In this document: piece after piece, positions 24,415-40,136 of the stretch
Numbering within the stretch: position 1 is the stretch's first letter
Layout of the letters: the number at the start of each line of letters is the position of its first letter
From: Candidatus Anstonella stagnisolia
GTDB lineage: Archaea > Micrarchaeota > Micrarchaeia > Anstonellales > Anstonellaceae
Length of the DNA: 64,000 nucleotides
Direction: 5' to 3'
Assembly: GCA_902384585.1 (NCBI GenBank)
Contig: CABMCJ010000004.1
Span: 770,086 to 834,085, forward strand
Program-made: the position numbers and the translations under genes
Notes under the pieces: model-generated
The model's input: the letters and a program-made list of their open reading frames with translations, nothing else
Databases searched by the model: none
Told to the model about the DNA's origin: nothing

Positions 24415-24432
24415 ATGTGCGATATCCGCACG

Positions 24433-24443: not shown

Positions 24444-24463
24444 CCCTTGCGCAAAGCAAAGGC

Positions 24464-25636
24464 ATGATAATCGGGATAGTGGGTGCGCCTAACAAGGGCA
24501 AGAGCACATTCTTTTCGGCTGCCACAATGGTGGATGCGCAGATTGCGGACTACCCTTTCACCACGATTGACCCGAACAAGGGAGTTGCGTATGTGAGAAG
24601 CCCGTGCCCGCACGTTGCACTGGGGCTGAAAAAATGCGACGCAAGGAACTCAAAATGCGAAGGGGGGGTGCGGCTCATTCCCATAAACATGGTGGACGTT
24701 GCGGGATTGGTGCCTGATGCGCACCTTGGAAAAGGCATGGGAAACCAGTTTTTGGGGGACCTTGCGCAGGCGGACGTTCTTATACAAGTGGTGGATGCAA
24801 GCGGGCGCACTGATGTGCAGGGGAACCGCGTGGAGGGCGCAGATGTATGCGAGGAAGTGAGGATGCTGCAGCGCGAAATTGAATATTGGATAAAGGCAGT
24901 GTTGGACAAGAACTGGGCAAAAATAAAGGGCAGGGGGATTGCGGATGTTGCGCTTGCGCTTTCCGGAATGAACGTGGGAGCGGCGGCATGCGAGGCTGCT
25001 GCGCGCGAGTGCGGATTGCAAATTGAGAAAATAGAATGGGATGATGGGGAAAAAATGGAGTTCTGCAAAAAAATAAGGGAGGCAAGCAAGCCCATTGTTG
25101 TTGCCGCGAACAAGTGTGATGCGCAGGGGGCTGCTGCAAATGTGGAAAAATTAAGAAATGATTTCCCGGAAATGCTTGTTGTGCCAACGTGCGCCGTTGG
25201 GGAGCTTGCGCTTCGGAAAGCGGCGCTGGGCGGGAAAATAAAATACGTGCCAGGGGCTGCAAACTTCGAGATTTGCGCTGAAATTGAAGAGAAGCAGGCA
25301 AAGGCGCTTGAGGCGATTGGGAAGATAATGCGTGCAAACGGGGAATGCGGGATGGGGGTGCAGGAGCTTATAGGGAAGGCTGTTTTTGAATATTTGAAGC
25401 TGGCGGACGTTTATCCGGTTGAGGACGAGCACAAGTTTTGCGACAACGCGGGCAGGGTGCTGCCGGATGCCTTCCTCATGAAAAAAGGCGCGACTGTTTT
25501 TGACTTGGCGGGAAAAGTGCACACAGATTTGCAGCAGCATTTCATAGGGGCAGTTAATGCAAAAACTAAGATGAGGGTGGGGCGGGACACGCTGCTTTTG
25601 CGCGGGGACGTAATACGCATAATTGCGGGGAAGTAA
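24464..25636 (+). CDS. Obg-family GTPase (YchF/Ygr210-related) with a C-terminal TGS domain
   Basis: Start moved to ATG 24464. The G1 motif is GIVGAPNKGKST, followed by YPFTTIDPN, DVAGLV and NKCD. The C-terminal segment is GDVIRIIAGK. Confidence 0.85.
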   Translation: MIIGIVGAPNKGKSTFFSAATMVDAQIADYPFTTIDPNKGVAYVRSPCPHVALGLKKCDARNSKCEGGVRLIPINMVDVAGLVPDAHLGKGMGNQFLGDLAQADVLIQVVDASGRTDVQGNRVEGADVCEEVRMLQREIEYWIKAVLDKNWAKIKGRGIADVALALSGMNVGAAACEAAARECGLQIEKIEWDDGEKMEFCKKIREASKPIVVAANKCDAQGAAANVEKLRNDFPEMLVVPTCAVGELALRKAALGGKIKYVPGAANFEICAEIEEKQAKALEAIGKIMRANGECGMGVQELIGKAVFEYLKLADVYPVEDEHKFCDNAGRVLPDAFLMKKGATVFDLAGKVHTDLQQHFIGAVNAKTKMRVGRDTLLLRGDVIRIIAGK

Positions 25637-25715
25637 GTTGCATCAGGCGGCGAGCCTTGCAAAGAGGCAAAAGATAAAAAGCGGGACTGAGAATATAGGG
25701 AAACGCGGTGATATC

Positions 25716-27206
25716 ATGGAGAATAATGAAAATGCCAGGAATGCACATGAAGCTGGCGCGAAAAAGAATTATGCGGTTTATGCAGTTGTTGTGATACTTG
25801 CCATTGTTGCGCTTGCTGCAGTTGTTCTTGGGATGCAAAAGCCTGCGGAAACAAAGCAGGCGACCCCGTCTGAATTTTTCTTTGCGTCCATGGACAAGAT
25901 GATGAACGCCACCGAATATTCGCTTGCGTTTAGCGAGAACGTGAGCGGGGTGGAAAACAAATACGCGATCGTGCGGGCCAAGAACGGGATGTTCGCATCG
26001 GCTGAAAACCCCGTAGATATGCGGGAGTTTTACGTGCTGGATGGCGGGAAATATGCGTGCGAGAAATTCGGGAATTACAGCGTGTGCGCGGACATGAGGG
26101 AAAACAGCAGCGCGCTTAATTTTTTCAATGCAAAGCTTGCCCCGAAATTCTTTGGGAAGCAGCAGGTGGAGCAGGACAAGGAATTTGTTGCGGCACTGGA
26201 AAAATTCGGTGCTGCAACTTTTGACGGGAACTTCGTGGAAAAGACAGTGGGAGGCATCAAGTGCAGGCAGGTCACTTATGCGCTGGATTATGGGAAACTC
26301 AGCCTGGACCAGCTAAATCAGCTTGGGATTTCGGCAAGCAGCCCGGTTGTCACGCAATTTAGCGACTACAGGATAAGCCTGTGCATAGATGAGGCAAGCG
26401 GCATTGCGGTGCAAACTGTGCTTTCGTACAAATTCAACAATGAGCAGAGAGTTTATACAAGGGAATATACCGGGCTGGAAGTAGGCGGCGTCGGGGAACT
26501 TAAAGCCCCGCTCAAGCTTGAGAATGTTGCCAAGTTCGAGGACGTTTTTGCGCAGGCAAATGCCGAGCTTGCGGTATATTCTGCATGCAGCGGGCTCGTT
26601 GAGAGCGAGGCTTCAAAATGCTACATAGGGATTGCACTGGACAGGTGGGACAGCAGTTTCTGCTCGAGAATAAGCGCGCCAAACGAGGCGGACAGGTGTT
26701 ACCTCATGGTCGCAGTGCAGGCGTCGCAGCCGCAAACGTGCGAAAGTGCGGGAAAATTGAGGGATGACTGCCTTTTTGAGATTGGGGCGGGAAGCAAAAA
26801 CCCAAGTGTATGCGGGATGATAGGCAATGCGAGCATGGTTGCGCAATGCAATGGGATTGCGGGGAACGGGACTGGGAAAAGCCCTGCGAACCAGACCCAG
26901 GCGCCGGCAAAGAAGGTTGAATGCGCCCAAGACAGCGACTGCGCGCCGACGGGGTGCAGCAACATTGTGTGCGCACCCCTGAACTCCACGGTTGCCACGA
27001 CGTGCGAATACAAATCGGTATACGCATGTTTTGAAAAAGCATTCTGCGGATGCAGGCAGGGCGCGTGCAGCTGGTATAAGGGGGAAGAGTACAATGCATG
27101 CGTAAGCGACTTTGAAAGCTCTGCCATGGAAAGCATAATCAAGGAAAAAATAGCTGAGCTCAACCAGACTGCCGGAAACGTTTCTGCAGGCAACTCAACA
27201 AAATAA
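25716..27206 (+). CDS. Membrane-anchored or secreted Cys-rich protein, function unknown
   Basis: Start moved to ATG 25716. The N-terminal TM anchor is YAVYAVVVILAIVALAAVVLG. The C-terminal third has repeated C-x(9-11)-C units and a dense Cys cluster (ECAQDSDCAPTGCSNIVCAP...CGCRQGACSWY). Confidence 0.55.
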   Translation: MENNENARNAHEAGAKKNYAVYAVVVILAIVALAAVVLGMQKPAETKQATPSEFFFASMDKMMNATEYSLAFSENVSGVENKYAIVRAKNGMFASAENPVDMREFYVLDGGKYACEKFGNYSVCADMRENSSALNFFNAKLAPKFFGKQQVEQDKEFVAALEKFGAATFDGNFVEKTVGGIKCRQVTYALDYGKLSLDQLNQLGISASSPVVTQFSDYRISLCIDEASGIAVQTVLSYKFNNEQRVYTREYTGLEVGGVGELKAPLKLENVAKFEDVFAQANAELAVYSACSGLVESEASKCYIGIALDRWDSSFCSRISAPNEADRCYLMVAVQASQPQTCESAGKLRDDCLFEIGAGSKNPSVCGMIGNASMVAQCNGIAGNGTGKSPANQTQAPAKKVECAQDSDCAPTGCSNIVCAPLNSTVATTCEYKSVYACFEKAFCGCRQGACSWYKGEEYNACVSDFESSAMESIIKEKIAELNQTAGNVSAGNSTK

Positions 27207-27216
27207 AAAGAAAAAG

Positions 27217-27387
27217 CGGGCCCAGAGGGATTTTCAACCGCGGCTTCACGCACCCTAGTTTTCGGAAAACGAAAAGGGGGTGAAACCACAGGGGGGACTT
27301 CCGGAATGCCTGATGCCCCCCTAGGTTTTCGAACCCTCGACATGTTGATTAAGAGTCAACCGCTCTACCAAGCTGAGCTATAGGCCC
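27217..27387 (-). tRNA. tRNA-Lys (anticodon CUU) interrupted by a ~97-nt intron inside the T-loop (about 27231..27327; position 59/60, junction ambiguous within GAAAA)
   Basis: The minus strand from 27387 reads GGGCCTA-TA-GCTC-AGCTTGGTA-GAGC-G-GTTGA-CTCTTAA-TCAAC-ATGTC-GAGGG-TTCGAA. Then ~97 nt intervene. T-CCCTC-TGGGCCC-G follows at 27230..27217 and completes the T-stem and the 7-bp acceptor stem (one G:U pair). Confidence 0.8.
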
Positions 27388-27434
27388 AAGGATATCTTTA
27401 TATCCAGGCAAAAATATAAACCATATGTTTGGTG

Positions 27435-28316
27435 AAGATGATGGCAAGGCAGAGGGAACTGTGCATTGAAGCGGCAGCTAAGCTGCAGGAAGAAGGGTAC
27501 GAATACGCCCAGTGCTGCGTGAGCGGCGGGTTTTTTGACATTGCAGCAAGAAGGGACGGGATGCTCCTCATAAAAGTCCTTGAGGACATAAACGCGTTTG
27601 CAGGGGCGCAGGCAAGCGGGATGAAAAACGCGGCTGCGATGCTGGAGAGCGGATGTTTTGTGCTGGGCGAATTCGCGGGCGGGCAGAGGCTGCGCGAAGG
27701 GGTGCTCTACCAGCGCCACGAGGTGGACGCGGGAGGGGTGGGCACGCTCGGGATGCTTATTGAGGAGCAGAAGATTTTTGTGCGAAAAAACAGGCGCGAA
27801 TACGTGAGGCTGGATGGGAAAAGGCTCTCGCAGGCAAGGGAAGAGGCGGGCATGGCGCTAAGGGAGCTTGCAAGGAAAAGCGGCATTTCAAAGGACACGC
27901 TGTGCAGGTATGAGAACAACGCAGGCATGGCGCTTGAGAGGCACGTGGACGCGCTTGAGGAAATAATGCGCACGGGGCTTAGGGCTGGTTTTGACGGGAT
28001 GCGCGCAAGCGCAGTGGGGTTTGATTTTTACGGGATGGCGGCAGCAAGGCTTGCAAAGCCTTTTGAGCTTGTTGCACGTGAAAAAGAAGACGGCGCGAAA
28101 ATTGTTTTTGGGGCAGGGCAGAACAAGAGGGCATTGCGCGCAAAAGCCGCGCTTTGCGGGGAATTCTCAAGGATAAGCAAGGCGGATTGCTGCTTCATGG
28201 TGGAAAAGTCAAAGGAAGACAATATTTTCGGCGTGCCAATAATACGCAAAAGCGAGCTTGAGGAAATGGGAAGGGTGGGGAGGATTGCGAAGCTTGTGAG
28301 GGAAAGGAAAGGGTGA
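27435..28316 (+). CDS. Archaeal putative HTH-type (Cro/C1/XRE) transcriptional regulator, ~300-aa family
   Basis: It has a central HTH (LSQAREEAGMALRELARKSGISKDTLCRYENN). The overall size and layout resemble the conserved archaeal 'putative HTH-type transcriptional regulatory protein' family. GTG 27429 is an alternative start. Confidence 0.65.
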   Translation, partial: KMMARQRELCIEAAAKLQEEGYEYAQCCVSGGFFDIAARRDGMLLIKVLEDINAFAGAQASGMKNAAAMLESGCFVLGEFAGGQRLREGVLYQRHEVDAGGVGTLGMLIEEQKIFVRKNRREYVRLDGKRLSQAREEAGMALRELARKSGISKDTLCRYENNAGMALERHVDALEEIMRTGLRAGFDGMRASAVGFDFYGMAAARLAKPFELVAREKEDGAKIVFGAGQNKRALRAKAALCGEFSRISKADCCFMVEKSKEDNIFGVPIIRKSELEEMGRVGRIAKLVRERKG

Positions 28317-28320
28317 GACT

Positions 28321-28914
28321 ATGAGAATTGCCGTTATTGCGGCTGCATTTGCAATGTTTGTGCTTTTGTTTGGGTGCGTGGGAGGCGGGCCCATACCTTC
28401 AGGCGTGGATGCGCATGGCGCGCAATACCGCGGTACAGACGGGGCGAAAGCCACCATTGTTGAATTTTCAGATTTCCAGTGCCCGTACTGCGCGCAGGCA
28501 GAGCCGACTGTGGAGAGGCTGTTGCGCGAGTATGCTGGGAAGGTGAAGCTCGTTTACAGGCATTATCCGCTGCCTGCGCACGAAAATGCATACATCGCAG
28601 CAGAGGCGTCAGAATGCGCGGCTGATGGGGGGAAATTCTGGGAAATGCACGACATCATGTACGCAAACCAGGAATCGCTGGATGAGGCGGGGCTGAAAAA
28701 GCTTGCCGCGCAGGTGGGGCTGGATGGGAACGCATTCGCAGCATGCATGCAGAGCGGGAAAAAGGCAGAAAAAATAAACAAGGACATGGAAGACGGGCGG
28801 ATTTTTGGGGTAAGGGCAACGCCTACGTTTTACATTGGCAGCCAGATGTTTGAGGGCGCGCCATATGACAAGATGAAGGCGGCAATTGAAGCTGAGCTGA
28901 ACGGGGCGAACTAG
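28321..28914 (+). CDS. DsbA-like thiol:disulfide oxidoreductase, lipoprotein-type signal
   Basis: The lipobox-like signal is LLFGCVGG and the thioredoxin active site is FQCPYCAQ. Confidence 0.75.
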   Translation: MRIAVIAAAFAMFVLLFGCVGGGPIPSGVDAHGAQYRGTDGAKATIVEFSDFQCPYCAQAEPTVERLLREYAGKVKLVYRHYPLPAHENAYIAAEASECAADGGKFWEMHDIMYANQESLDEAGLKKLAAQVGLDGNAFAACMQSGKKAEKINKDMEDGRIFGVRATPTFYIGSQMFEGAPYDKMKAAIEAELNGAN

Positions 28915-29460
28915 ATGCTTCCTGAATTGGGCGAGATTGGGAAAAGGCGCAGGCAGGCAGGGATGACGCAGCAGCAGCTTGCAAGCTGCGCAGGGATTTC
29001 CCAGTCACTTGTTGCAAAGATAGAGAGCGGCACGCTTGCGCCAAGCTACGAAAATGTCAAGAGGATTTTTGAGTGTTTTGAAAGGGAGCAGAAAAAAGCC
29101 GGGAGAAGCGCAGGTGAAATCGCAAGCAGGAAAATTTTTTATGCAAAGCCTGAGGAGACTGTGGAGAAGGCGATTGAAACCATGAGAAAGCACGGGTTTT
29201 CCCAACTGCCTGTTTTGAGGCAGGGGAGGATCGTGGGGAGCATAAGCGACGAGAACATAGTGGGGTTTTTGCGCGATGGAAAAGAAGCAGGGAAGGCGAA
29301 AGTCGAGGACATAATGGGGGAGCCGTTTGCGCGCATATCAAAGGACGCGCAGGTCGAGGCGGTTGTCGGGCTGCTGAAATACGAAAAGGCGATAGTGGTG
29401 ACAGAGGGGGAGGAAGTAAAGGGGATAATAACCAGGGCGGATTTGTTCAAGCTTTTTTAG
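28915..29460 (+). CDS. XRE-type HTH plus CBS-pair domain regulator
   Basis: The ATG directly abuts the upstream stop. The N-terminal HTH is RRQAGMTQQQLASCAGISQSLVAKIESG. CBS-like repeats follow (GFSQLPVLRQGRIVGSISDENI, VVTEGEEVKGIITRADL). Confidence 0.75.
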   Translation: MLPELGEIGKRRRQAGMTQQQLASCAGISQSLVAKIESGTLAPSYENVKRIFECFEREQKKAGRSAGEIASRKIFYAKPEETVEKAIETMRKHGFSQLPVLRQGRIVGSISDENIVGFLRDGKEAGKAKVEDIMGEPFARISKDAQVEAVVGLLKYEKAIVVTEGEEVKGIITRADLFKLF

Positions 29461-29468
29461 GCGTTTAA

Positions 29469-29855
29469 ATGGATGTTGAAACTGCGGCAGACGTGCAGGA
29501 AATAATGGATGACATAGTGAGAACGCTTGGGCTTGGGCACATCAATGAGTTCCGCATAATATGCATGCGTTCGCGCAATGCAAAGGCGCACGCATATGCA
29601 AGGATATGGAACCTGCCTGACATCTGGCAGAAGGCACTTGAAGTAAAGGCGTTTTATGTCATAGAGGTCCTGTCGGAAAAGTTTGACGTGCTGGGCGAAA
29701 CTGAAAAAAAGAAGGTAATAATACATGAGCTGCTGCACATACCAAAAACTTTCTCGGGTGCGCTTTTGGGGCATGCATACGGGAACAAGAGGATAGATGG
29801 CAGGACTGTTGAATCTATTTACAAAGAGTACATCAGGCGCAAGCAATCAGAATAG
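29469..29855 (+). CDS. Putative zinc metallopeptidase (HExxH; COG4900-like)
   Basis: 128 aa with VIIHELLHIP (HExxH). Confidence 0.6.
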   Translation: MDVETAADVQEIMDDIVRTLGLGHINEFRIICMRSRNAKAHAYARIWNLPDIWQKALEVKAFYVIEVLSEKFDVLGETEKKKVIIHELLHIPKTFSGALLGHAYGNKRIDGRTVESIYKEYIRRKQSE

Positions 29856-30305
29856 TTTTAGGGTGAAATCGCCAAGAAGATGCGAGAGGTAGCCGATTGA
29901 AAGGCCGGCTGCCGCGGTGGCGCCAAAGGCGAAAAAAACAGGCACGCACAGCAATGCAAAGAAGAAAAAGGAGTGCGTAATGCCGCGGTGGCGCGGGCGC
30001 AGCAGCGCCAGGAAAACATGCAGGGCTGCTGCAAGCAGGATGAACGAGAGCAAAACCAACTGGAGTTTCTCTGCAAGAGGCTGTTGTGTTTGGGACACAA
30101 AAACAACCGAGAGTGCGCACAGGAAAACCAGCGAAATGAAAAAAGAGAGCCTTGATATTTTGCTGTTTTTGTGGTCTATGTCAGGCAGGATGGAGGCAGT
30201 GAGGCAAAGAAGGATGGGGGAAGGGGAAGTTAGAAGGCTTGGGTAAAACGCGCATGCTGCAAGAAAAAGCGCAAGGGAAAACGCAAGGTGCGCAATCCAG
30301 TTCAT
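29847..30305 (-). CDS. Membrane-bound metal-dependent hydrolase, YdjM/DUF457 family
   Basis: Family motifs are present in order: MNWIAHLAFSLA, SILPDIDH, HRGITHS and SHLLGDF. Confidence 0.65.
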   Translation of the reverse strand: MNWIAHLAFSLALFLAACAFYPSLLTSPSPILLCLTASILPDIDHKNSKISRLSFFISLVFLCALSVVFVSQTQQPLAEKLQLVLLSFILLAAALHVFLALLRPRHRGITHSFFFFALLCVPVFFAFGATAAAGLSIGYLSHLLGDFTLKLF

Positions 30306-30881
30306 TTACACACTGTCCGTTGCGCGCAGCAGGGATTTGAAAGAAGAGTGGAGATGGAGCGCCTGCTCCTCAGGCTTGTTGTGGGTGGACCTTGCCGCCT
30401 GCAGCACGTTGTAATATGCCTCGCCGAATGCTGCCTGGAAGAGCAGCGCCTCGTCGTTTGTGAAAGAGGAGGTTGCGGAGCAAAGGGCTGCGAGGTATTT
30501 CAGCTGCTTGAGGGCAAGGGCGCCCTGGCGGCGGCGCTGGGCATATTTTGAGCTGAAGAGAACCAGGATGAGCGCGAAAAGGGAATTGAGCCGCTCGCGA
30601 AAATGCGCGGCAAGGGCAGGCATTGTGAACTCTGTTTTTTGCTGCATGGGTAGGATTGTTTGCTGCGCAAGCAAGGGTGTTTGGAACAGTTCCGTTGCCG
30701 GGGCGGAGGTTTTTTCCTGCGCGAAAGCCTGGGCAGGTTTTGCCTCGGCGTATTTTTGCCCTGGGAAGAAATATTTGGAAGAAAAACGGGTTGTGGGCAC
30801 GGCTAGTTGTTTTTCTCCGGATTGTTTTTGTGTGAGGTCTGGCATAGCCAACCACGGTCGCGTCCATAATGTGGAACGCAA
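30306..30881 (-). CDS. Hypothetical protein (start uncertain; alternative ATG 30845)
   Basis: Its stop abuts the ydjM-like start (TAA-ATG). No recognisable motifs. Confidence 0.4.
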   Translation of the reverse strand: MRSTLWTRPWLAMPDLTQKQSGEKQLAVPTTRFSSKYFFPGQKYAEAKPAQAFAQEKTSAPATELFQTPLLAQQTILPMQQKTEFTMPALAAHFRERLNSLFALILVLFSSKYAQRRRQGALALKQLKYLAALCSATSSFTNDEALLFQAAFGEAYYNVLQAARSTHNKPEEQALHLHSSFKSLLRATDSV

Positions 30882-30951
30882 TGTTTAAAAAGAAAAGCCG
30901 GGCGGCGAAAACAAAGGGGTGTTTAATAAGTTTGCAGGTGAATTTTGTGGC

Positions 30952-31944
30952 ATGGATGTTGAGAAATTCTTTGTTCAAAAATCAGGGCTTGTGGAAAAAA
31001 AGATAGGGGAGATAGTGCCCAAAGGGAGCGAGCCTGCCGAAGTGTACGGGCTCATATGGGACCTTGTTGACAGGGGCGGAAAGAGGCTGAGGCCTGCGCT
31101 TTGCCTGCTTTCGTGCGAGGCAGTTGGGGGAAGGGAGGAAGATGCGCTTGGGGCTGCGGCGGCAATTGAAATGTTCCATAATTTTACGCTCATACATGAT
31201 GATATTGAGGATTGCTCGCTCCTTAGGAGGGGAAAGCCGTGCCTGCATGTGCAGTATGGCGTGCCGCTTGCGCTCAATGCGGGGGACGGGCTGTTCATGA
31301 TGGTGTGGAAAGCAGCGATGGGTGTTGGAAGGAATTTTGAGGAGAATAAAATCGCGCAAAAGATGCTGCTTGAGGCATTTACAAAAGTGCTTGAGGGGCA
31401 GGCGATTGAGCTTGGTTGGTATTATAAAAACAAATGGGATGTTAGTGAAGGCGAATATAGGAAAATGGTGGAAGGGAAAACCGGGGCCCTCATAGGGGTG
31501 AGCTGCGCGGTTGGGGCATTTTTAGGCGGCGCGGAAAAAGAAGAGGTCGAGAATTTGATGGGGTTTGGGATGGAAGTGGGAGTTGCATTCCAGATACAGG
31601 ATGATGTTTTGAATATTGTAGGGGATGAAAAAAAATACAAGAAAGAAATTGGCGGGGATATTGTTGAGGGGAAAAGGACGCTCATTGTGATTGAGGCGCT
31701 TAGGAGGCTTCCAAAAAATGAGGCTGGAAGGTTGGAAAATCTGCTTAAGAAGAAAAAGAAAGCCAAGAAAGATGTTAAAGAAGTTATTGCGCTCCTTAAG
31801 AAAAGCGGCGGGGTCGGGGCTGCCCAGAAAGAGGCGATGCGCCTTGTGGCAAGCGCGCGGGAAAAATTGGAGTTTGTTAAAAACCCCGCAGCAAAAGAGA
31901 TGTTTGAGGGGATTGCGGATTATTTGATAATGAGGGAAGTTTAG
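30952..31944 (+). CDS. Polyprenyl (geranylgeranyl) diphosphate synthase
   Basis: The first Asp-rich motif is LIHDDIED and the second is FQIQDDVLN. Start moved to ATG 30952 with an AGGTGA RBS upstream. Confidence 0.85.
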   Translation: MDVEKFFVQKSGLVEKKIGEIVPKGSEPAEVYGLIWDLVDRGGKRLRPALCLLSCEAVGGREEDALGAAAAIEMFHNFTLIHDDIEDCSLLRRGKPCLHVQYGVPLALNAGDGLFMMVWKAAMGVGRNFEENKIAQKMLLEAFTKVLEGQAIELGWYYKNKWDVSEGEYRKMVEGKTGALIGVSCAVGAFLGGAEKEEVENLMGFGMEVGVAFQIQDDVLNIVGDEKKYKKEIGGDIVEGKRTLIVIEALRRLPKNEAGRLENLLKKKKKAKKDVKEVIALLKKSGGVGAAQKEAMRLVASAREKLEFVKNPAAKEMFEGIADYLIMREV

Positions 31945-32044
31945 TTTTATTTTGGGAAAATGGCGCGAAGATAGTTTTTTAAAATGGAAGATAGTAATAG
32001 GGACGCAATTTGCAATACTGCTGCAAAATTACGAGGGTGAGAAG

Positions 32045-32302
32045 ATGGTAACGAAAGCGTCAAAATTGTATGATATGGATATCTACACAGACGGCGGCAA
32101 GTTTTTGGGAAGGGTGCATGAGATTTTGATTGATTTGGAAAGAGGGGAAGTGGTGCGCCTTACAATGGAGCCGCTTAGCTCTGTATCAAAAGATGAGGCA
32201 AAGAGGATTTTGAGGGATAAGAGCATCTTGTACAAAAATGTAAAATCTGTTGAAGATGTTGTGGTTGTTGGAAAAGGCCTTACTGGTTTGCCAAGCGAAT
32301 AA
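32045..32302 (+). CDS. PRC-barrel domain protein
   Basis: ATG 32045 has a GAGGGTGA RBS. The sequence ASKLYDMDIYTDGGKFLGRVHEILIDLERGEVVRL fits the PRC-barrel pattern. Confidence 0.6.
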   Translation: MVTKASKLYDMDIYTDGGKFLGRVHEILIDLERGEVVRLTMEPLSSVSKDEAKRILRDKSILYKNVKSVEDVVVVGKGLTGLPSE

Positions 32303-32312
32303 GTTTGTTTGT

Positions 32313-32516
32313 AGAGAGGGCACACTTCCACTATTTTTTTCTTTTATTACGGTCTTTTTTTAGGTTTTTGAGGTTTTTAGTGAAAAGCTGCTATTTTTGT
32401 TGTTTTTTGTTTTTGGGTGTTTATATTGTTTATTGTAACTATAGTTACATAATAATAAATAATAAACTAATCAAACTAACAAACACAATGTAAAATAGTG
32501 GAACTATGCCCTCTCT
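32313..32516. repeat. AT-rich (~25% GC by eye) element bounded by 25-nt imperfect inverted repeats, with an internal 16-nt perfect palindrome
   Basis: The left repeat is AGAGAGGGCACACTTCCACTATTTT (32313..32337). The right repeat is AAAATAGTGGAACTATGCCCTCTCT (32492..32516). They match 23/25 as reverse complements. The left half of the spacer is T-rich and the right half is A-rich on the plus strand. TGTAACTATAGTTACA lies at 32434..32449 and AGGTTTTT occurs twice. Confidence 0.85.
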
Positions 32517-32542
32517 TCTCTAATTAAAAACAAAGACAATAA

Positions 32543-32617
32543 TAGCGGGAGGTGGATTTGAACCACCGGTCTCTGGGTTATGAGCCCAGCGGGCACTCCA
32601 AACTACCCTATCCCGCT
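32543..32617 (-). tRNA. Initiator tRNA-Met (anticodon CAU)
   Basis: The minus strand reads AGCGGGA-TA-GGGT-AGTTTGGAGT-GCCC-G-CTGGG-CTCATAA-CCCAG-AGACC-GGTGG-TTCAAAT-CCACC-TCCCGCT-A. It has the A1:U72 pair and three G:C pairs closing the anticodon stem, both initiator hallmarks. Confidence 0.9.
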
Positions 32618-32658
32618 TTTATAATAAAAATTAGCACACACACCTTAAAAACCAATCT

Positions 32659-33297
32659 TTACTTTTTTTTCTCAAAAAAACTTAAATCATTCCCACAACT
32701 TGAGCACTTAAACTGCCTGTCCATGGCGGTTTCAAAATCAACCACACTTTCTTTTCCACACCCTGCGCAAAAATACTGGTCCCCTTCGCCACTTGCAACG
32801 CATTTTTCCCCAACATACCCTTCTGCGCCCTTGTTTTGGTAAACAGGCATCAAAATTTCCTTTTCCTTCCCCTCATCAAGCCGCCATACATATGAATACC
32901 AACCACTGTCTTTGTCCCTGCTGCGCGCGTATTGCGCCATCCCCAAGCTATGCAGCTTATTGAGCACAATGCGCACATCGCTCACTTTCATCTTGGCTTT
33001 CTTCGCAAGCTCCTCATCTGAGAGCTCGCATGTGAATTCCCTTAAAACATTAATTGTGTTTTCACCTGCAACATCTATCAAATGGCTCCGCACCATGGAA
33101 TTTGCAAGCAGGGTTTTTTGCAGCGTGTATTGCTGTTTTTTTATCCTGATTTTTTCAACACCCGCTGGCCTGGTGGTTTTTCCAACAACAGCTTTCTGGT
33201 GTTTTTTTGTAATCTTCCTTATTTTGGGCGCAGCGCTCCGCTTAAATTGCTTTTTCCCAACCTTAATTTTTTTAGCAGATTTTTTTGCTTTTGCCAT
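32659..33297 (-). CDS. tfe: Transcription factor E (TFE alpha) with a ~55-aa Lys-rich N-terminal extension
   Basis: The winged helix is NVLREFTCELSDEELAKKAKMKVSDVRIVLNKLHSLGMAQY...WYSYVWRL. The C-terminal zinc ribbon is FCAGCG...FKCSSCG. Confidence 0.75.
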   Translation of the reverse strand: MAKAKKSAKKIKVGKKQFKRSAAPKIRKITKKHQKAVVGKTTRPAGVEKIRIKKQQYTLQKTLLANSMVRSHLIDVAGENTINVLREFTCELSDEELAKKAKMKVSDVRIVLNKLHSLGMAQYARSRDKDSGWYSYVWRLDEGKEKEILMPVYQNKGAEGYVGEKCVASGEGDQYFCAGCGKESVVDFETAMDRQFKCSSCGNDLSFFEKKK

Positions 33298-33327
33298 GAC
33301 ACCAACACCAGCTTAAACTACATTTTA

Positions 33328-33885
33328 TTAACACATCTCTCCTTTATATTGCTTGGCGCCCTTATTACACACTAAAACACTCTTTCCACACTTATTTGGC
33401 ACGATTTTCACTTTTGCCCCCCCAAATTCCCTTCCCAGCTCGTTCCCCTCAAAATACCTGTCTAAAAATATCGTGAGTGCAGCAACTTCCGAGTGAGGCT
33501 GGCTGGTTACTGCCACATTATAATCTGCCGCAAGATACATTTCTTTTTCAACCTTTTCAGCCCCAACAACAACCAGCAACTTTTTTTCCTTGCGGATTTT
33601 TCCAACAACATCCTGCACCTTCTCCCCATACATTGTAAGGTGCGCAATTTTTCCGCCCTGCCCTTTCCATTCCTTCACAAACGCAACCCAGTTCCCTATC
33701 TGCTGCGCAAAAAACTTCCCGCCCCATTTCCCAACGACTTTTGTTACGCCCTCCACGAGCTTCTCATCCTTCTCCCCATGGATGTACACTCCCTCTGCCC
33801 CAAATGCCCTCGCAGCAAGGCACACATGGGTAGTAAGCCTCTGGTCACGCACGCACCTGTGCCCAATCCTCAATACAACAACCAT
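33328..33885 (-). CDS. trm56: tRNA (cytidine56-2'-O)-methyltransferase (aTrm56, SPOUT)
   Basis: Start moved to ATG 33885. Motifs are VVLRIGHRCVRDQRLTTHVCLAARAFGA, HLTMYG and VVVGAEKV. Confidence 0.8.
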   Translation of the reverse strand: MVVVLRIGHRCVRDQRLTTHVCLAARAFGAEGVYIHGEKDEKLVEGVTKVVGKWGGKFFAQQIGNWVAFVKEWKGQGGKIAHLTMYGEKVQDVVGKIRKEKKLLVVVGAEKVEKEMYLAADYNVAVTSQPHSEVAALTIFLDRYFEGNELGREFGGAKVKIVPNKCGKSVLVCNKGAKQYKGEMC

Positions 33886-33935
33886 GCCTAACTCTCCCCA
33901 CCTAAAATTATATACCCCTGCCCCCAAACAACCCT

Positions 33936-34307
33936 ATGAAGAAAATACTCCTTGATGCGAACTTCCTGCTCCTTCCCTTCGAGTCCAAGCTGGATTTGTT
34001 CGGCGAAATCGAGCGCATTGTGGGCGAGCCCCATTCTTTTTTCACAACAAAAAGCGTAAAGCTCGAGCTTGAGAGGTTCGCAGACTTAAAAAACAAAAAA
34101 GCCGTTGCAGCGGGCTGCGCGCTGTCGTACCTGCTCCCTAAAATCGCACTCATCGAAGACGCCGGCTATGCGGACGATTCGCTCTTCGCGCTTGCAAAAA
34201 AGGAAAAATTCATCGTGTGCACAAACGACGCCGGCCTGCGTTCGCGCTTGCGCGCCGAAAAAATCCCCACCATAATAATGCGCAACCACAAGCTTGCGCT
34301 GCTATAG
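33936..34307 (+). CDS. PIN-domain ribonuclease, Fcf1/Utp24-like
   Basis: 123 aa. The N-terminus is ILLDANFLL and VCTNDAGLRSRL is also present. Confidence 0.65.
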   Translation: MKKILLDANFLLLPFESKLDLFGEIERIVGEPHSFFTTKSVKLELERFADLKNKKAVAAGCALSYLLPKIALIEDAGYADDSLFALAKKEKFIVCTNDAGLRSRLRAEKIPTIIMRNHKLALL

Positions 34308-34315
34308 GCGTTTTT

Positions 34316-35647
34316 ATGGAGCCCGACCTCCCTGCTTTTCTTGAGCGCTGCGCGCAAATACGGGAGCACATCTTGCAAATGAAAAACCCGCACATACTAA
34401 GCCACTTTGATTGCGACGGGCTTGCAAGCGCCTCAATCACAACCGCCTTTTTAACGCAACACAACATCCCCCACACCCTCCAAATAGTGAAAAAACTTGA
34501 TGCAGCCGCACTCTCTTCCCTCTCGGGCAAAAAGGAGATAATTTTCACTGACCTGGGGAGCGGCTGCCGGGAAATTTCCAACCTGCATGGCGACATAGTC
34601 GTGCTCGACCACCACCAACGCGCCGGCATCCCACACCTCGAGGCAAACCCATATCTTTTTGGCTTTAATGGCGACACGCACATAAGCGCAAGCGGCGTGT
34701 GCTACTTTGTTTTCAAAACCCACGTGCATTTGGGCATTGTGGGTGCAGTCGGGGATGTGCAAACCCCCCTCTCCTCACCTGAAAGTCTAAACTGCCTGAT
34801 GCTTCAGGACGCCGAAAATTCCAATGCCGTGAAAAAATACACCGGCATCCGCCTCTTCGGGCGCGCAAGCAGGCCACTCTCCCAAATGCTTTTTTTTGCA
34901 GACGACCCGTATCTTCCTGGCTTGAGCGGCGATGAGCAGCGCTGCTCCCAATTCCTCTCAACCTGCAACATCCCGCTGAAAGAAGGCGAACGCTGGCGCA
35001 CCTACCTGGACCTCACACAATCCGAGCAGGCAGCACTCATAAGCGCGCTCGCGGAATTCCTCTCAAAAGACGGCTCCCCAACAAAACCCCAACAACTTCT
35101 CTCCGAGAACTACCTTCTCCTCTCCCAGCCAAAAGGAAGCGAGCTTTCAGACGCAGGCGAGTTTTCAACCCTTCTGAATGCATGCGGCAGGAACAACAGG
35201 CCGCAAACAGGGATTGGTGTGTGCCTTGGCGAAGCAGGCGCAGTGCAGGAAGCCCTCTCACTCCTCGCGCTTCACCGCAAAAACCTGCGCGCCGGCATAG
35301 AATATGCGCAGGCAAACCTGCTTGATTTCGGCAAATTTTTCCTCCTTGACGGGCGCGGCATAATACCTGACGGAATAATCGGCGTAGTCGCAGGCATGCT
35401 TGTTGGCAGGGGGCAAAAACCAATACTTGCGCTCGCACTTGATTCGGACTCAAAAAACACACTAAAGCTTTCCACCCGCGCAACAAAATCCCTTGTCGAA
35501 TCCGGTTTAAATTTAGGCAAAATACTCAACGAAACAACCCCTTTGCTTGGCGGCGTTGGCGGCGGGCACAAAATAGCCGCAGGCGCCTCAATCCCAAATG
35601 AAAAACTGGAGGAATTCCTGCTTCTTTTTGCAGAAAAACTACAATAA
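34316..35647 (+). CDS. DHH-family RecJ-like nuclease (archaeal RecJ/Cdc45/GAN homolog)
   Basis: Start moved to ATG 34316. It has SHFDCDGLASA, VVLDHHQ (DHH) and the DHHA1 motif GGVGGGHKIAAG. Confidence 0.8.
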   Translation: MEPDLPAFLERCAQIREHILQMKNPHILSHFDCDGLASASITTAFLTQHNIPHTLQIVKKLDAAALSSLSGKKEIIFTDLGSGCREISNLHGDIVVLDHHQRAGIPHLEANPYLFGFNGDTHISASGVCYFVFKTHVHLGIVGAVGDVQTPLSSPESLNCLMLQDAENSNAVKKYTGIRLFGRASRPLSQMLFFADDPYLPGLSGDEQRCSQFLSTCNIPLKEGERWRTYLDLTQSEQAALISALAEFLSKDGSPTKPQQLLSENYLLLSQPKGSELSDAGEFSTLLNACGRNNRPQTGIGVCLGEAGAVQEALSLLALHRKNLRAGIEYAQANLLDFGKFFLLDGRGIIPDGIIGVVAGMLVGRGQKPILALALDSDSKNTLKLSTRATKSLVESGLNLGKILNETTPLLGGVGGGHKIAAGASIPNEKLEEFLLLFAEKLQ

Positions 35648-36397
35648 CACTTTCCTTCCAGCGCAGTCGCGGTGGAATTTCCCGAATTCGGGGTGCTCCA
35701 CAATTTTTGCGTCAAAAACAGGCCCGTCAAAACACACTAAAATTTCCCCAATAGAGCACTGCCCGCACATCCCAAATCCGCATTTCATGTACCGTTCCAA
35801 AAGAAGCTGGCATTTTATTTTTTTCTCAATGCAAAGTTTCCCTACCGCGCCCATCATCTTCTCAGGCCCGCACGCATACACCTCATCAATTTTCTCTTCC
35901 TGCAAAATTTTCTTAAGCGCATCCACAACGTTTCCCTTCATGCCTTCAGACCCGTCATCCGTTGTAAAAACAGTGCGCACCCCCGTCTCCCCTTTCATGA
36001 GCTTGTCCTTTGAGCGCGCCCCAATAACCACGATTGGCTCATCCCCTTTTTTCTTTGCAATCCTTGCGGCATATCTCATCGGCCCGGTCCCGTACCCGCC
36101 CCCAATCGCAACAATCTTCTTTCCCTGCGGCTCAAAAAAGTTCCCGTACGGCCCAAACAGCCAAATCTTTTCGCCTTTTTTCATGGAGGCAAATTTCCTG
36201 CTGAATTCCCCAACTGCACACACGGAGAACCTAAGGGGCGAAACCCCTGCAACGCTAAACGGCTTTTGCCCAACGCCCGGAACCCACACCATGTAAAATT
36301 GCCCAGGCTGCGGCTTGTCCTTGCACTCAACAAAAATAGTCTTGGTCGCCTGGTTCTCATCCTCAACTTTGCTTATTTTGCATTCTTTTGGAAGCAT
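35639..36397 (-). CDS. pyrK: Dihydroorotate dehydrogenase electron-transfer subunit
   Basis: It has the FAD/NAD-binding fold and a C-terminal 2Fe-2S ligand block, CGFGMCGQCS. It lies immediately downstream of pyrD. Confidence 0.85.
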   Translation of the reverse strand: MLPKECKISKVEDENQATKTIFVECKDKPQPGQFYMVWVPGVGQKPFSVAGVSPLRFSVCAVGEFSRKFASMKKGEKIWLFGPYGNFFEPQGKKIVAIGGGYGTGPMRYAARIAKKKGDEPIVVIGARSKDKLMKGETGVRTVFTTDDGSEGMKGNVVDALKKILQEEKIDEVYACGPEKMMGAVGKLCIEKKIKCQLLLERYMKCGFGMCGQCSIGEILVCFDGPVFDAKIVEHPEFGKFHRDCAGRKVLL

Positions 36398-36401
36398 TTT
36401 C

Positions 36402-37340
36402 TCACTCTTGCAATTTCAACCCGCTTATTTTTGAATACCCGTTTTCCTTCATGAATGCAAAAAGCTCGTCGCGTATTTCCCCAAGCGCATTTTTCCTATA
36501 AGAAATTGCGCTTCCCACCCCAACTGCGCTTGCGCCTGCCATGAGCATCTCAACTGCATCAAGCCCGCTCATCACTCCGCCCGTCCCTATTATCGGTATT
36601 TCAACTTCCCTCGAAACGCTATACACCGCGCGCAGCGCAATCGGCTTTAGCGCAGCACCCGAAAGCCCGCCCTCCCTGTTGCTTAAAATAGGCCTTCTCG
36701 CCTTGGCATCAATGAGCATTCCAGGCATTGTGTTTATTGCAACAATCCCGTCCGCCCCTGCTTCCTCAACTGCTTTTGCAACTTCCACGATGTCCGTTAC
36801 GTTTGGCGTGAGTTTCGCAAACACCGGCACGCTGCAAACGTTTTTCACCGCCACTACGACTTTCGCGGCATCTTCGCTCACGCACGCAAACATCCTTCCC
36901 TCGCTCCCAACATTCGGGCACGACATGTTAAGCTCAATCGCATCCGGCTTTGCCTCCATTACAATCTGCGCGGCCTGCGCAAACTCCTCCACAGAGCGCG
37001 CGAATATGCTCGCAATTACGGGCACGCCTTCCTTTAGGCAGCCTTTTTTTGCCTCTGCAAGCTCCTCTACTTCGGTTTTTGCGCCCGGATTCGATAATCC
37101 AACCGCATTTAGCACATACCCGTCAAGAAGCACTATTGTGGGGTTCTTATGCCCCTCCCGCGGCTGCAGGCTGCATGATTTTGACGTTACCGCGCCCGCG
37201 CCGCTCTTTGCAGCCCTTACAAGAAGAAGCCCGCTTGTGCCCCAAATTCCCGATGCAAGGACAAGGGGGTTGCCCATCCTCATCCTGCACATTTCAACAG
37301 ACAAATCCGGGTTTCCCAAACAAGCACCAGAATATTGCAT
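36402..37340 (-). CDS. pyrD: Dihydroorotate dehydrogenase (class 1B catalytic subunit)
   Basis: Family motifs NPLVLASG, ELNMSCPN, VFAKLTPN and IIGTGGV are present. Confidence 0.9.
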   Translation of the reverse strand: MQYSGACLGNPDLSVEMCRMRMGNPLVLASGIWGTSGLLLVRAAKSGAGAVTSKSCSLQPREGHKNPTIVLLDGYVLNAVGLSNPGAKTEVEELAEAKKGCLKEGVPVIASIFARSVEEFAQAAQIVMEAKPDAIELNMSCPNVGSEGRMFACVSEDAAKVVVAVKNVCSVPVFAKLTPNVTDIVEVAKAVEEAGADGIVAINTMPGMLIDAKARRPILSNREGGLSGAALKPIALRAVYSVSREVEIPIIGTGGVMSGLDAVEMLMAGASAVGVGSAISYRKNALGEIRDELFAFMKENGYSKISGLKLQE

Positions 37341-37377
37341 CAGAAGATGTTTTTAACCTTAATTGCCAAATGCTTAC

Positions 37378-38859
37378 ATGCTTTTCACGCAGAAATACTC
37401 GCCCCATTCCCTCGCCGAGCTGGCAGGGAACGAGGAGGCATTTTCAAAAATGCGCCGCTGGGCGTTCCTGTGGGCAAAAGGGGAACGCCCGCAGCCGCTT
37501 CTTCTTTTTGGCCCCTGCGGCGTTGGGAAAACATGCAGCGTGCATGCCCTTGCAGAGGAGTTCAGTTGGGACCTTCTCGAGCTCAACAGTTCCTCGAGCC
37601 GAACCTCCGAGGCAATCTCGGATTTCCTTGGCGCAGCCTCTTCTTCCTCGGGCCTTTTTGGCAACAAAAAACTCCTTCTTATAGATGACGCTGATTTTGC
37701 TGCAGGCGAAGACCGCGGCAGTGCGTCTGCATTCGCAAAAATAGCATCGTCCGCGCAGCAGCCGCTCATCATAACCGCAACAGACGCATACAACAAAAAC
37801 CTTGCACCGCTTCGCGGAATTTGCGAAAAAACCGAGCTCAAGAAGGTGAATGTGCACGCGCTCCTTTTAGTCCTCAAGCGCGTGTGCAAGGCTGAAAAAA
37901 TCCAGCTTTCAGACGAAGAACTTTCCCTTATCGCGCAGAATTCGCAAGGTGACGTGCGCGCAGCCCTGAACGATTTGCAGGCGCGCAATTTCTCCCCTCT
38001 CTCGCGCGAGCGCGAAAAAAACATTTTCGAGGTCGTGCGCGGCATCTTCAAGGCAACAAAATATTCCGAGTGCCGCCCTCTAATGATGTCATGTTCCGTC
38101 CCAAACGACACGCTCAAGCTCTGGATAGAGGAGAACATCCCCATAGAATACGAAAAGCCCTCGGACATCGCAGCCGCGTTCAATTCGCTCTCGCGCTCCG
38201 ATATGTTTGACGGCAGGATAAGAAACCGCCAGTACTGGGGCTTTTTGCGCTACTCAACCGACCTCATGGGCGCGGGCGTTGCACTTTCAAAGGAGGCGCC
38301 CTACCGGAAATTCACCGCATACGCGTACCCCTCCTACATACGCACAATGGGCGCAACAAAGGAAAAGCGCTCCATACGCAAATCCCTCTCGCGCAAGTTC
38401 GCAACAAACTTCCACTGCTCGCTTTGGGCAGGCATGGACTATGTGCAACTTTTTACCTTGTTTGCAAAGCAGGACGCAGCGCACACCTGCGCAGCATACT
38501 CAATAGAGGTTCCGGAACTCGCATACCTTCTTGGCACTACTTCTGAAAAAGCGCAAAAGCTTCTTGAAGGCAAAGGGGAAAACCCCAAAAAACCCAAAAA
38601 ATCAAACGCCGCAGCAAGCGAAAAACCGCAAGAAGTTCCCGCCGTACTTCCCCCCGGCAAAAAAACCCGGCAAAAGAGCGCGAAAAAAGAAACCGTTGCA
38701 GGAAAAACCGCAGAAAAAACACCCATGCCAGAAAAAGGCCCCGCATCCGGCGCAAAAAACGAACCCCCAAAATCCACCCCTGCCGAAAAAACAGGCAAAA
38801 ACCCTCCTGAGGAAAAACAAAAATCTTCTGGCAGGCAGTCAACACTGGGGTTCGACTAG
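37378..38859 (+). CDS. rfcL: Replication factor C large subunit with a Lys/Pro-rich tail and a C-terminal PIP-like box
   Basis: Start moved to ATG 37378 (MLFTQKYSPHSLAELAGNEEA). Walker A is LLFGPCGVGKT, Walker B is LLLIDDAD and SRSD is present. The C-terminus is ...GRQSTLGFD. Confidence 0.85.
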   Translation: MLFTQKYSPHSLAELAGNEEAFSKMRRWAFLWAKGERPQPLLLFGPCGVGKTCSVHALAEEFSWDLLELNSSSSRTSEAISDFLGAASSSSGLFGNKKLLLIDDADFAAGEDRGSASAFAKIASSAQQPLIITATDAYNKNLAPLRGICEKTELKKVNVHALLLVLKRVCKAEKIQLSDEELSLIAQNSQGDVRAALNDLQARNFSPLSREREKNIFEVVRGIFKATKYSECRPLMMSCSVPNDTLKLWIEENIPIEYEKPSDIAAAFNSLSRSDMFDGRIRNRQYWGFLRYSTDLMGAGVALSKEAPYRKFTAYAYPSYIRTMGATKEKRSIRKSLSRKFATNFHCSLWAGMDYVQLFTLFAKQDAAHTCAAYSIEVPELAYLLGTTSEKAQKLLEGKGENPKKPKKSNAAASEKPQEVPAVLPPGKKTRQKSAKKETVAGKTAEKTPMPEKGPASGAKNEPPKSTPAEKTGKNPPEEKQKSSGRQSTLGFD

Positions 38860-38951
38860 CCCTTCATCTTCGTTCCACCGCCGATAAAAAGCGAACGTTT
38901 AAAAAACAATACGGCGTATTTACCCCGTTATTTATTGTGGAGGTGTCTTTA

Positions 38952-39167
38952 ATGGGAAAGAAAATTGGAACAGAGAAAATAAAGAGAGAAGACGGCTACC
39001 TTTACTACATCGGTAAAGACGGCTACGTATGGGCAGCCCCAATGAAACACAACAAATCCGGCAGGAAGAAGAAAGTCGGAGGAGAGAAGGTTTCAAAGGA
39101 ATCCGGCTTCATGTACTATCTTGGAAAGGATGGCTACGTGTACAGCGCAAAGCTGAAAAACGCTTAA
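38952..39167 (+). CDS. Small (71 aa) very basic protein made of two copies of a [D/S]G[Y/F].YY.GKDGYV motif
   Basis: ATG 38952 has a GGAGGTG RBS 7 nt upstream and a TTTAAAAA TATA-like box at about 38899. The repeat units are REDGYLYYIGKDGYVWAAPMK and KESGFMYYLGKDGYVYSAKLK. A strong hairpin terminator follows. Confidence 0.55.
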   Translation: MGKKIGTEKIKREDGYLYYIGKDGYVWAAPMKHNKSGRKKKVGGEKVSKESGFMYYLGKDGYVYSAKLKNA

Positions 39168-39185
39168 GTAACTTTTTTCTTTGGG

Positions 39186-39220
39186 GCGGATTCGCAAGAA
39201 TCCGCTTTTCTAATTTTTTA
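39186..39220 (+). terminator. Hairpin plus T-tract terminator
   Basis: GCGGATTC-GCAA-GAATCCGC (39186..39205) is followed by TTTTCTAATTTTTTA. Confidence 0.5.
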
Positions 39221-39291
39221 TGCGTGCGTCTATCCATCGTTCTTCTCACCACAAGACACATGGTTAAAAATCTGCCATTTTAAATCCTGCC

Positions 39292-40080
39292 ATGGACATT
39301 TACGAGCGAGCATATTTTGACCGATGGCGCAACATGATAGGGGACAAAAACCTTGGCAGTGCAATCATAATGTCCTCGGATTACGCATTCTTGTTCCACT
39401 TTGGCAAAAAGAGGCACCACGGGCAGCTGGTGGTTGATTTTGGCGGCAACATCGGGGCGAATTCGCGGCAAATCGAAAACACCGTTGTAGTTGAAATAAG
39501 CGACGCGGCGCGCGAATGGATGAACGCCAACGGCGTCAAGTGCGAAAAATCCATTGATTCCTTTGCAGACGGCTCAATAGATACGATATACTGCTCCCAT
39601 GTGCTTGAGCATTTGGAAGAGCCCGTGCGCTACCTGCGCCTTTTCAGGAAAAAACTGAAAAAAGGCGGCAAGCTCCTCCTTGTGCTGCCCTCTGAAAACC
39701 AGATGTTCGAGCCGCAAGCGCCGCTCTTTGACGAAAACGGGCATTTGCAAACCTGGAATTTTGTGCATATCGCAACAAGCCTGCGCCTTGCCGGATTTTC
39801 CATCACACACCAAAGGCTTATCCCGCGGCCGCACTTGCTTTTTTTCCTGCCGGAAAGGGTGCTGCGCACATCCAGGCTGCGCCCTGCCTTCCTCAACGCA
39901 GTCCATTCGCTCTACAATTTCAAGCCCGTAAGGTATTTCTTTTACCAGGCTGCGCTATTTGAGCTGTTCATAAAAAGCCTGCGCCTGTTCGCATACTCGC
40001 TTTTTGGGAAAATGCCCGGCAGCGGAAAATACGGCTATGTTTTCGGCGAGAACCTCATAGAAGCCGCAAAAACCGATTGA
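39292..40080 (+). CDS. Class I SAM-dependent methyltransferase
   Basis: Motif I-like VVDFGGNIG, then YCSHVLEHLEEP and KKGGKLLLVLP. Confidence 0.7.
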   Translation: MDIYERAYFDRWRNMIGDKNLGSAIIMSSDYAFLFHFGKKRHHGQLVVDFGGNIGANSRQIENTVVVEISDAAREWMNANGVKCEKSIDSFADGSIDTIYCSHVLEHLEEPVRYLRLFRKKLKKGGKLLLVLPSENQMFEPQAPLFDENGHLQTWNFVHIATSLRLAGFSITHQRLIPRPHLLFFLPERVLRTSRLRPAFLNAVHSLYNFKPVRYFFYQAALFELFIKSLRLFAYSLFGKMPGSGKYGYVFGENLIEAAKTD

Positions 40081-40136
40081 CCTTTCCAACGCCGCAATCG
40101 CAAACATTTATATTATAACTATTCGCACTTCCATGC

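Follow-up and report, generated by a model that had tools for sequence, protein, structure and literature searches.

We analysed a 64,000-nt stretch of the Candidatus Anstonella stagnisolia (Micrarchaeota, DPANN) genome (contig CABMCJ010000004.1 of 920,852 nt, positions 770,086 to 834,085), referred to throughout as the window, and found within it a 204-bp AT-rich element (positions 32313-32516 of the window) that may well be a chromosomal replication origin (oriC), unlinked to orc1. Judged from sequence, we give this interpretation a probability of roughly 0.58. It is built on the anatomy of the element, its conservation and single-copy occurrence in related loci, its coincidence with a flip in strand composition and its gene context.

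The GC content of the element is 27.5% (22.7% between its arms), whereas the window as a whole has 51%, and no other 204-nt stretch of the 64 kb is lower. An earlier reading made from the letters of this DNA, hereafter the sequence-only reading, had described an AT-rich stretch bounded by 25-nt inverted repeats, and these are indeed present: the arms (32313-32337 and 32492-32516) are 25 nt each and complementary at 23/25 positions. Further matches to the 25-mer at no more than 3 mismatches were found neither in the rest of the window nor in 100 shuffles. The octamer TTCCACTA occurs in the 64 kb solely at 32326 (+) and 32496 (-), and the 16-nt palindrome TGTAACTATAGTTACA (32434-32449), also picked out in that reading, is exact and occurs only once in the window. 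T makes up 61% of the left half of the element and A 60% of the right, and when folded as single-stranded DNA the whole is predicted to form a long imperfect hairpin (-29.2 kcal/mol, z = -5.2 vs shuffles), in agreement with the T-rich and A-rich halves and the hairpin of the sequence-only reading. The parts of the element, including two boxes that resemble archaeal origin recognition boxes (ORBs), are as follows:

32313..32337, + strand: left ORB-like box, AGAGAGGGCACAC-TTCCACTA-TTTT, with the conserved core TTCCACTA at 32326-33.
32338..32433, no strand assigned: left half of the AT-rich centre, a putative unwinding element (+ strand T 61%, G 20%, C 5%).
32434..32449, no strand assigned: central palindrome TGTAACTATAGTTACA, class-wide consensus AT-GTAAC-YATR-GTTAC-AT, and the site of the strand-composition flip.
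32450..32491, no strand assigned: right half of the AT-rich centre (+ strand A 60%, C 14%, G 2%).
32492..32516, - strand: right ORB-like box, the left box inverted, reading AGAGAGGGCATAG-TTCCACTA-TTTT on the - strand.

The flip in strand composition divides the window in two:

1..64000, no strand assigned: chromosome-arm strand asymmetry; at neutral sites of the + strand G>C and T>A to the left of ~32.44 kb, C>G and A>T to the right.

On the + strand, GC skew at third codon positions is +0.28 (+ genes) and +0.23 (- genes) to the left of the element, and -0.26 (+ genes) and -0.31 (- genes) to the right. Unannotated DNA of the window behaves in the same way (+0.20 left, -0.18 right), and the excess of T over A accompanies that of G over C. 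Since both gene strands and the unannotated DNA give the same signs, the switch is not an effect of gene orientation; the asymmetry is of the chromosome-arm, replication type. The coincidence of element and skew switch in the sequence-only reading is therefore real, with the sign change falling inside the element. The same is seen in relatives. GC skew is positive to the left of the element and negative to the right in 45/51 chromosomal loci (those with at least 1 kb on each side of it), and in 5 further loci the left value is higher than the right. Both GC skew and TA skew switch sign in the 100-nt bin containing the palindrome. Moreover, the link between element and flip is kept where the element is away from the gene for Transcription factor E (TFE), as in loci L062 (36 kb from TFE) and L063 (a 742,788-nt contig). 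A strong asymmetry of mutational type, without gene-strand bias, is a property of the window and of loci L017, L022, L062 and L063; in L017 the GC skew of the whole sequence reaches +0.43/-0.49. It has recently been generalised that archaeal skews stem from gene orientation (PMC12999951). The third-position skew of the window, at about ±0.25-0.3, runs counter to the claim in that paper that archaea lack such asymmetry.

Related loci were gathered from TFE homologues, from GTDB genomes scanned with an alignment of TFE, from look-ups of a small-protein family described below, and from a DNA-pattern scan of JGI metagenomes. Together they yielded 74 non-redundant copies of the element, from Micrarchaeota metagenome-assembled genomes (MAGs) and metagenomes. 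The loci with the element extend down to TFE identities of 37-78% to that of the window, and have GC contents of 35-57%. Three blocks are kept among these relatives (the boxes, the palindrome and the composition of the filler), while the sequence of the filler drifts; the left AT-rich half (32338..32433), for instance, retains its composition but not its sequence. The consensus of 54 boxes is GGGACCCC-AnAC-TTCC-R-CTA-WT, or AWTAGYGGAAGTnTGGGGTCCC on the other strand. The 25-nt arms are thus kept in part only, the conserved portion of each being TTCCRCTA and an outer G/C string, which in the left box of the window reads GAGAGGG and in the majority of relatives GGGACCCC. The most conserved block is the palindrome, whose consensus is nearly invariant; beyond 18 bp only AT-richness remains. 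The filler is GT-rich on one side of it and AC-rich on the other, and in the pooled relatives the GC content of the element is 0.31-0.34 vs 0.47-0.49. As a rule there is one box per side (more in L011, L013 and L066) and one copy of the element per locus, and in 0.9 Mb of related DNA the string-bearing box is hardly ever found outside the element. Repeats and palindrome alike are hence conserved at the syntenic loci of relatives, and no dispersed copies of the kind expected of a miniature inverted-repeat transposable element (MITE) appeared in the window or in related loci, two checks that the sequence-only reading had proposed. Conserved, single-copy and linked to the flip, the element thus marks a replication landmark in the group as a whole and is neither a MITE nor a plain terminator.

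Some matches and irregularities in this collection deserve mention. Matches on viral contigs (L067-L069) lie inside coding DNA and were rejected as chance, likewise about five metagenome matches. In L062, which comes from a distant genome, the palindrome is duplicated: GTAACCATGGTTAC occurs twice between 9824 and 9998, 160 nt apart, one copy lying outside the pair of boxes and the other separating that pair from the small gene described below. Many contigs also break off no more than a few hundred bases from the element, at a frequency that is above chance by a rough count (L001, L016, L024, L027, L042, L052, L059, L073, L081, L104, L122 and L124). These breaks possibly reflect assembly failure at a hairpin-prone AT-rich repeat, or variation within the population (inversions).

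We propose that the element acts as follows. Two inverted initiator-binding boxes would face each other across an easily melted AT-rich centre of ~150 bp, each box comprising half a mini-ORB (AGYGGAA on the reverse strand) and the outer string. An initiator of the Orc1/Cdc6 type, encoded elsewhere in the genome, would bind the boxes and, with the half mini-ORBs pointing inward, two MCM helicases would be loaded between them. Bidirectional synthesis would begin at or beside the central palindrome, and the composition of neutral sites would flip there because synthesis starts there. The leading strand would be C- and A-rich, like those of haloarchaea and yeasts. The invariant 18-bp palindrome could be the site for a further dimeric factor, either a regulator or an organiser, and the oligo-T runs beside the boxes may also halt both convergent transcripts before they reach the origin.

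A number of observations argue for such an origin. Two inverted boxes around an AT-rich centre are the standard layout of archaeal origins (PMC4010727), and in the window inverted repeats surround the most AT-rich stretch. The euryarchaeal ORB consensus is GTTCCAGTGGAAAC-AAA----GGGGG, and the box matches its AGTGGAA half and its G-string, with order and strand preserved (PMC1868953). The box also shares TTCCACT and the upstream C-run with ORB1/2 of Pyrococcus furiosus (PMC1904270). The genes for the large subunit of replication factor C (RFC-L), a RecJ/GAN-like protein and family B DNA polymerase (PolB) cluster beside the element across the class, a situation also found at Haloferax oriC1, and GT-stretches adjoining ORBs that flank an unwinding element are likewise found at a Haloferax origin. 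Nor does the positive-to-negative polarity of the flip exclude an origin, since experimentally mapped haloarchaeal origins share it, with inverted GC skew and a C-rich leading strand (PMC1868953). Ori3 of Haloferax volcanii lies at a local maximum of the cumulative GC skew of third positions and non-coding DNA (PMC12999951), and the leading strands of yeasts are rich in A and C (PMC3459929).

Several points weigh against an origin. One is the initiator gene. No orc1/cdc6 turned up within 32 kb in the window, nor within ~10 kb in over 100 related loci, in searches with an Orc1 consensus probe that was validated on solved Orc1 structures (PDB 2qby_A, E 5e-152). Pfam gave no Orc1 domain for those window proteins to which it was applied, and the probe had no match on viral contigs. 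To our knowledge, nearly all characterised archaeal origins adjoin the initiator gene. By the rule of bacteria, Thermococcales and Ca. Forterrea (a DPANN archaeon with cdc6 at the origin position predicted from its skew pattern), a change from positive to negative skew denotes converging forks. The two flanking genes, moreover, are oriented toward the element. Of the two candidates between which the sequence-only reading did not choose, the evidence favours the unwinding element flanked by initiator-binding repeats with a mini-ORB-like TTCCAC core, the conserved part of each arm agreeing with the AGTGGAA half and the G-string. However, set against the mini-ORB dyad TTCCAGTGGAA, the boxes of most relatives hold AGYGGAA and GGGG(T), and the TTCC half is absent. 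In the clade of the window itself, moreover, the G-string is replaced by CCCTCTC. We know of no conserved central palindrome among the features of archaeal origins, and about half of the relatives have a 78-aa gene in the interval separating the boxes. Locus L062 departs from the pattern in two ways: its between-box filler is GT-rich throughout, and its flip is found next to the second palindrome, ~100 nt to the right of that filler and not midway between the boxes (a position taken from the printed sequence and 2-kb windows, with no fine-scale measurement). Gene orientation does not settle the direction of the forks. Pfam-validated genes of the window are split ~50:50 toward and away from the element, 45% of greedy open reading frames (ORFs) in 26 loci point toward it (by a method biased by the skew itself), and the orientation of tRNA genes in relatives is mixed. 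Orientation around the element being unbiased, fork direction cannot be calibrated from it.

The polarity and the convergent genes are what would be expected if the element were instead a replication terminus at which forks converge, an explanation that is the main rival to an origin but that we regard as unlikely. In it the palindrome would act either as a symmetric barrier to forks or as a dif site of the recombinase XerA, with TAA-CYATRG-TTA at the centre of imperfect arms of 11 bp, and the two inverted boxes would be a polar barrier or accessory sites, like the inverted Ter repeats by rtp in Bacillus subtilis. The skew polarity at neutral sites, with G- and T-rich strands converging, is of the terminus type in the three groups just named, and the flip falls exactly at the palindrome, L062 included. 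The convergent genes, the lack of a nearby orc1 and the single copy also fit. The core of the palindrome (G-TAA-CTATAG-TTA-C in the window) conforms to TAA(N6)TTA, the most conserved feature of archaeal dif, and the dif of Thermococcus kodakarensis lies in an AT-rich spacer between convergent genes (PMC11840125). For comparison, the dif of Pyrococcus abyssi is ATTGGATATAA-TCGGCC-TTATATCTAAA.

A closer fit to dif is not borne out. Conservation ends at 18 bp. In an Xer arm of 11 bp this would leave 4-5 outer positions unconstrained, and the 'spacer' of 6 bp, CYATRG, hardly varies; Xer sites show the opposite pattern. With conservation confined to 18 bp that include the would-be spacer, the palindrome resembles an operator for a dimeric DNA-binding protein more closely than it does a 28-bp Xer site. 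For the dif-like site that the sequence-only reading had put forward as its other candidate, the TAA-N6-TTA core fits, and conservation reaches over ~18 bp only. No tyrosine recombinase was detected by a motif scan of the window and L001-L059 (0.9 Mb), nor by a weaker single-motif scan of L060, L062, L063, L065 and L066, with L070-L126 outside the scan.

The small gene bears on the terminus more directly. About half of the lineages carry inside the element a gene for a 78-aa protein, which is absent from the window. Carriers include L008, L010, L011, L013, L014, L017 (10760-10996, for example), L020-L022, L032, L033, L043, L062, L063 and ~30 metagenome loci. Its start codon is 3 nt past the palindrome and a TATA-like box is located at -26 to -31, which therefore places the palindrome in the position of an operator. 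In tus/TerB and rtp/TerI the terminator gene is autoregulated by its own site. The similar layout in many relatives therefore keeps a terminus alive. The family has 132 members and no Pfam domain, and all members with a named source are from Micrarchaeota. Among the 120 of 132 members listed, none was attributable to the contig of the window, and the gene may be missing from that genome. The predicted structure (pLDDT 91) has a ferredoxin fold resembling Cas2/VapD, with an invariant Asp7, although fold matches are weak (best E 0.01, TM ~0.6). This is no known DNA-barrier fold, which counts against a terminus. So do the boxes, which resemble initiator sites and are multiplied in a mobile element (see below), and deep synteny with a cluster of replication genes is typical of origins and not of termini. 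The inverted polarity, too, is documented at mapped archaeal origins. Less probable again is the specific arrangement of a sequence-defined terminus in which forks from a distant, orc1-linked origin would be stopped at the palindrome or the boxes, possibly with dimer resolution, and in which the Cas2/VapD-like protein of many lineages would be an autoregulated factor binding the site.

The module also occurs on a virus-like mobile element, recovered at 99-100% identity in four samples (L066, L074, L094 and L119) and corresponding to IMGVR_UViG_3300025736_000116 (30.4 kb). The features described here were observed at 6070-6510 of L066 and at 6400-6830 and 2877-4448 of L074. The order in the mobile copy is a box, 35 nt, the palindrome, 160 nt and an inverted box with G-string. 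The mobile element has five further TTCCRCTA or TAGTGGCAA boxes, arranged like iterons, and adjoins tRNA-Glu. It encodes a true ParB (ParB_N and HTH_ParB), seen in L066/L074 only; its other genes are ORFans, one of which has a holin-like match. A search with end sequences to extend L066 returned the same locus, and the overlapping contig L074 added 3.7 kb. Repeated boxes of this kind on a mobile replicon are what one would expect of an origin acquired from its host.

That ParB is relevant to a further alternative, in which the element would organise or segregate the chromosome (as a parS-like centromere or a boundary for SMC) at a replication landmark, and take no part in starting or ending replication. 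This we consider improbable. Bacterial parS is a palindrome of comparable format to the perfect 16-18-bp core of the element, and the mobile element with the module is the one that encodes ParB. In addition, AT-rich A-tract DNA around dif forms an SMC boundary in Thermococcus (PMC11840125). However, 1.49 Mb of host loci yielded no ParB, the sequence of the half-site (GTAAC) does not resemble parS, and a segregation site would leave the flip in mutational strand bias unexplained.

Very improbable is that the element is a mere bidirectional terminator or a mobile remnant (a MITE or att site) by a tRNA gene: oligo-T runs do follow both boxes on the transcribed strands, the 3' end of a tRNA adjoins the element in chromosomes and in the mobile element alike, and the box ACTTCCRCTA resembles the 3' end of tRNA-Met, ACTTCCCGCTA, in direct reading, but there is one copy per locus with nothing similar elsewhere in the window, three blocks are kept across the class while the T-rich filler drifts, and the flip coincides with the element in those 45/51 loci. 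T-runs are all that archaeal termination requires. A T-tract terminator acting in both directions, as suggested in the sequence-only reading, is thus plausible as a partial function, and leaves the conserved blocks without explanation; a plain terminator is insufficient for that reason. In Rfam searches the tRNA was the sole match and no hairpin-type terminator was found. A MITE is ruled out by the single copy in the window and per locus (the duplicated palindrome of L062 excepted), and a tRNA-derived att site is insufficient, as the likeness of the box to the tRNA-Met 3' end fails for the tRNA-Glu beside the mobile copy.

The genes around the element that are relevant to the proposed origin are the following:

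32045..32302, + strand: PRC-barrel gene, transcribed toward the element and often found beside it in relatives.
32543..32617, - strand: initiator-type tRNA-Met, with its 3' end toward the element; a conserved neighbour in most relatives.
32659..33297, - strand: Transcription factor E (TFIIE alpha-like), the synteny anchor.
34217..35647, + strand: DHH/DHHA1 RecJ/GAN-like gene (Cdc45-like replisome component), in the replication-gene cluster beside the element.
37363..38859, + strand: putative RFC-L, with the AAA+ motifs GPCGVGKT and GDVR.
58650..61049, + strand: PolB, 26 kb from the element.

The element thus lies between convergent PRC-barrel and initiator tRNA genes, exactly as had been noted from the letters. 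The tRNA-Met is of initiator type by its A1:U72 pair and the GGG:CCC of its anticodon stem, taken from the sequence, and is followed, moving away from the element, by TFE and Trm56. The name given to RFC-L is putative and comes from three observations: its motifs, a weak match to the Orc1 probe (E 0.0085), and AAA and RCF1-5-like lid domains in the syntenic homologue of L063. In many relatives an RFC-L homologue is found no more than ~5 kb from the element, on either side, and the distance of PolB to the element is 3-7 kb in L062 and L063. Whether RFC-L is on the TFE side or the opposite one varies (the window vs L007, L009, L018, L019, L025, L044, L046 and L049), a pattern that repeated inversions symmetric about the element would yield.

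Two observations concern individual genes of this neighbourhood. The RecJ/GAN-like gene, if read as its longest ORF (GTG at 34217), shares 90 nt with a PIN-domain gene (33936-34307); its true start is probably further downstream, because the product in relatives is 443 aa. The tRNA-Met beside the element in L002 (5100-5190, equal to L004), L009, L037 and L045 contains an insert of ~70 nt in the T-arm region, which looks like a non-canonical intron. ARAGORN misses the tRNA-Met genes that bear the insert. The tRNA-Met of the window is without an intron, and a tRNA-splicing endonuclease is encoded in the window at 23406-23996 (-).

In the papers searched we found no description of this element or of an origin or terminus of Micrarchaeota, nor of most DPANN archaea, and a literature search with the palindrome sequence returned nothing relevant. 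The element offers a phylum-wide sequence marker of a replication landmark, recognisable in fragmentary MAGs. Such a marker would permit growth-rate estimates from coverage and checks of assemblies, as well as biochemistry of Orc1, MCM or XerA from hard-to-culture organisms. If the element is an origin, the archaeal rule that an origin lies beside the initiator gene is not general, and a conserved central palindrome would be added to the repertoire of origins. A terminus, on the other hand, would make it the first fork trap to be defined in archaea.

Lastly, we compared the element with known systems. With archaeal oriC (Haloferax volcanii oriC1, Pyrococcus oriC, Sulfolobus oriC1) it shares an AT-rich centre within inverted repeats, AGTGGAA followed by a G-string in the repeat, replication genes nearby, GT-stretches by the ORBs and a switch in strand composition, which in haloarchaea has the same inverted polarity. 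Unlike these origins, it has no adjacent orc1/cdc6, its mini-ORB dyad is half complete and, in the clade of the window, without the G-string; it has an invariant central palindrome of 18 bp, convergent flanking genes and, in many lineages, a small Cas2-like gene inside it. With the Xer/dif systems of Pyrococcus abyssi and Thermococcus kodakarensis it has in common a single copy, a TAA-N6-TTA palindrome, AT-richness, convergent genes and an inversion of skew. It differs from them in that conservation within each putative arm is limited to the inner 6-7 bases, the putative spacer hardly varies, ORB-like boxes flank the palindrome and no XerA gene was seen in the DNA scanned. No fork trap is known to us in any archaeon. 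With those of bacteria (IRI/IRII-rtp in Bacillus subtilis, TerB-tus in Escherichia coli) the element shares inverted repeats at a skew inversion and, in relatives, a small gene with a promoter overlapping one of the element's sites; it differs in the lack of homology, in the Cas2/VapD-like nature of the small protein and in the absence of the small gene from the window.

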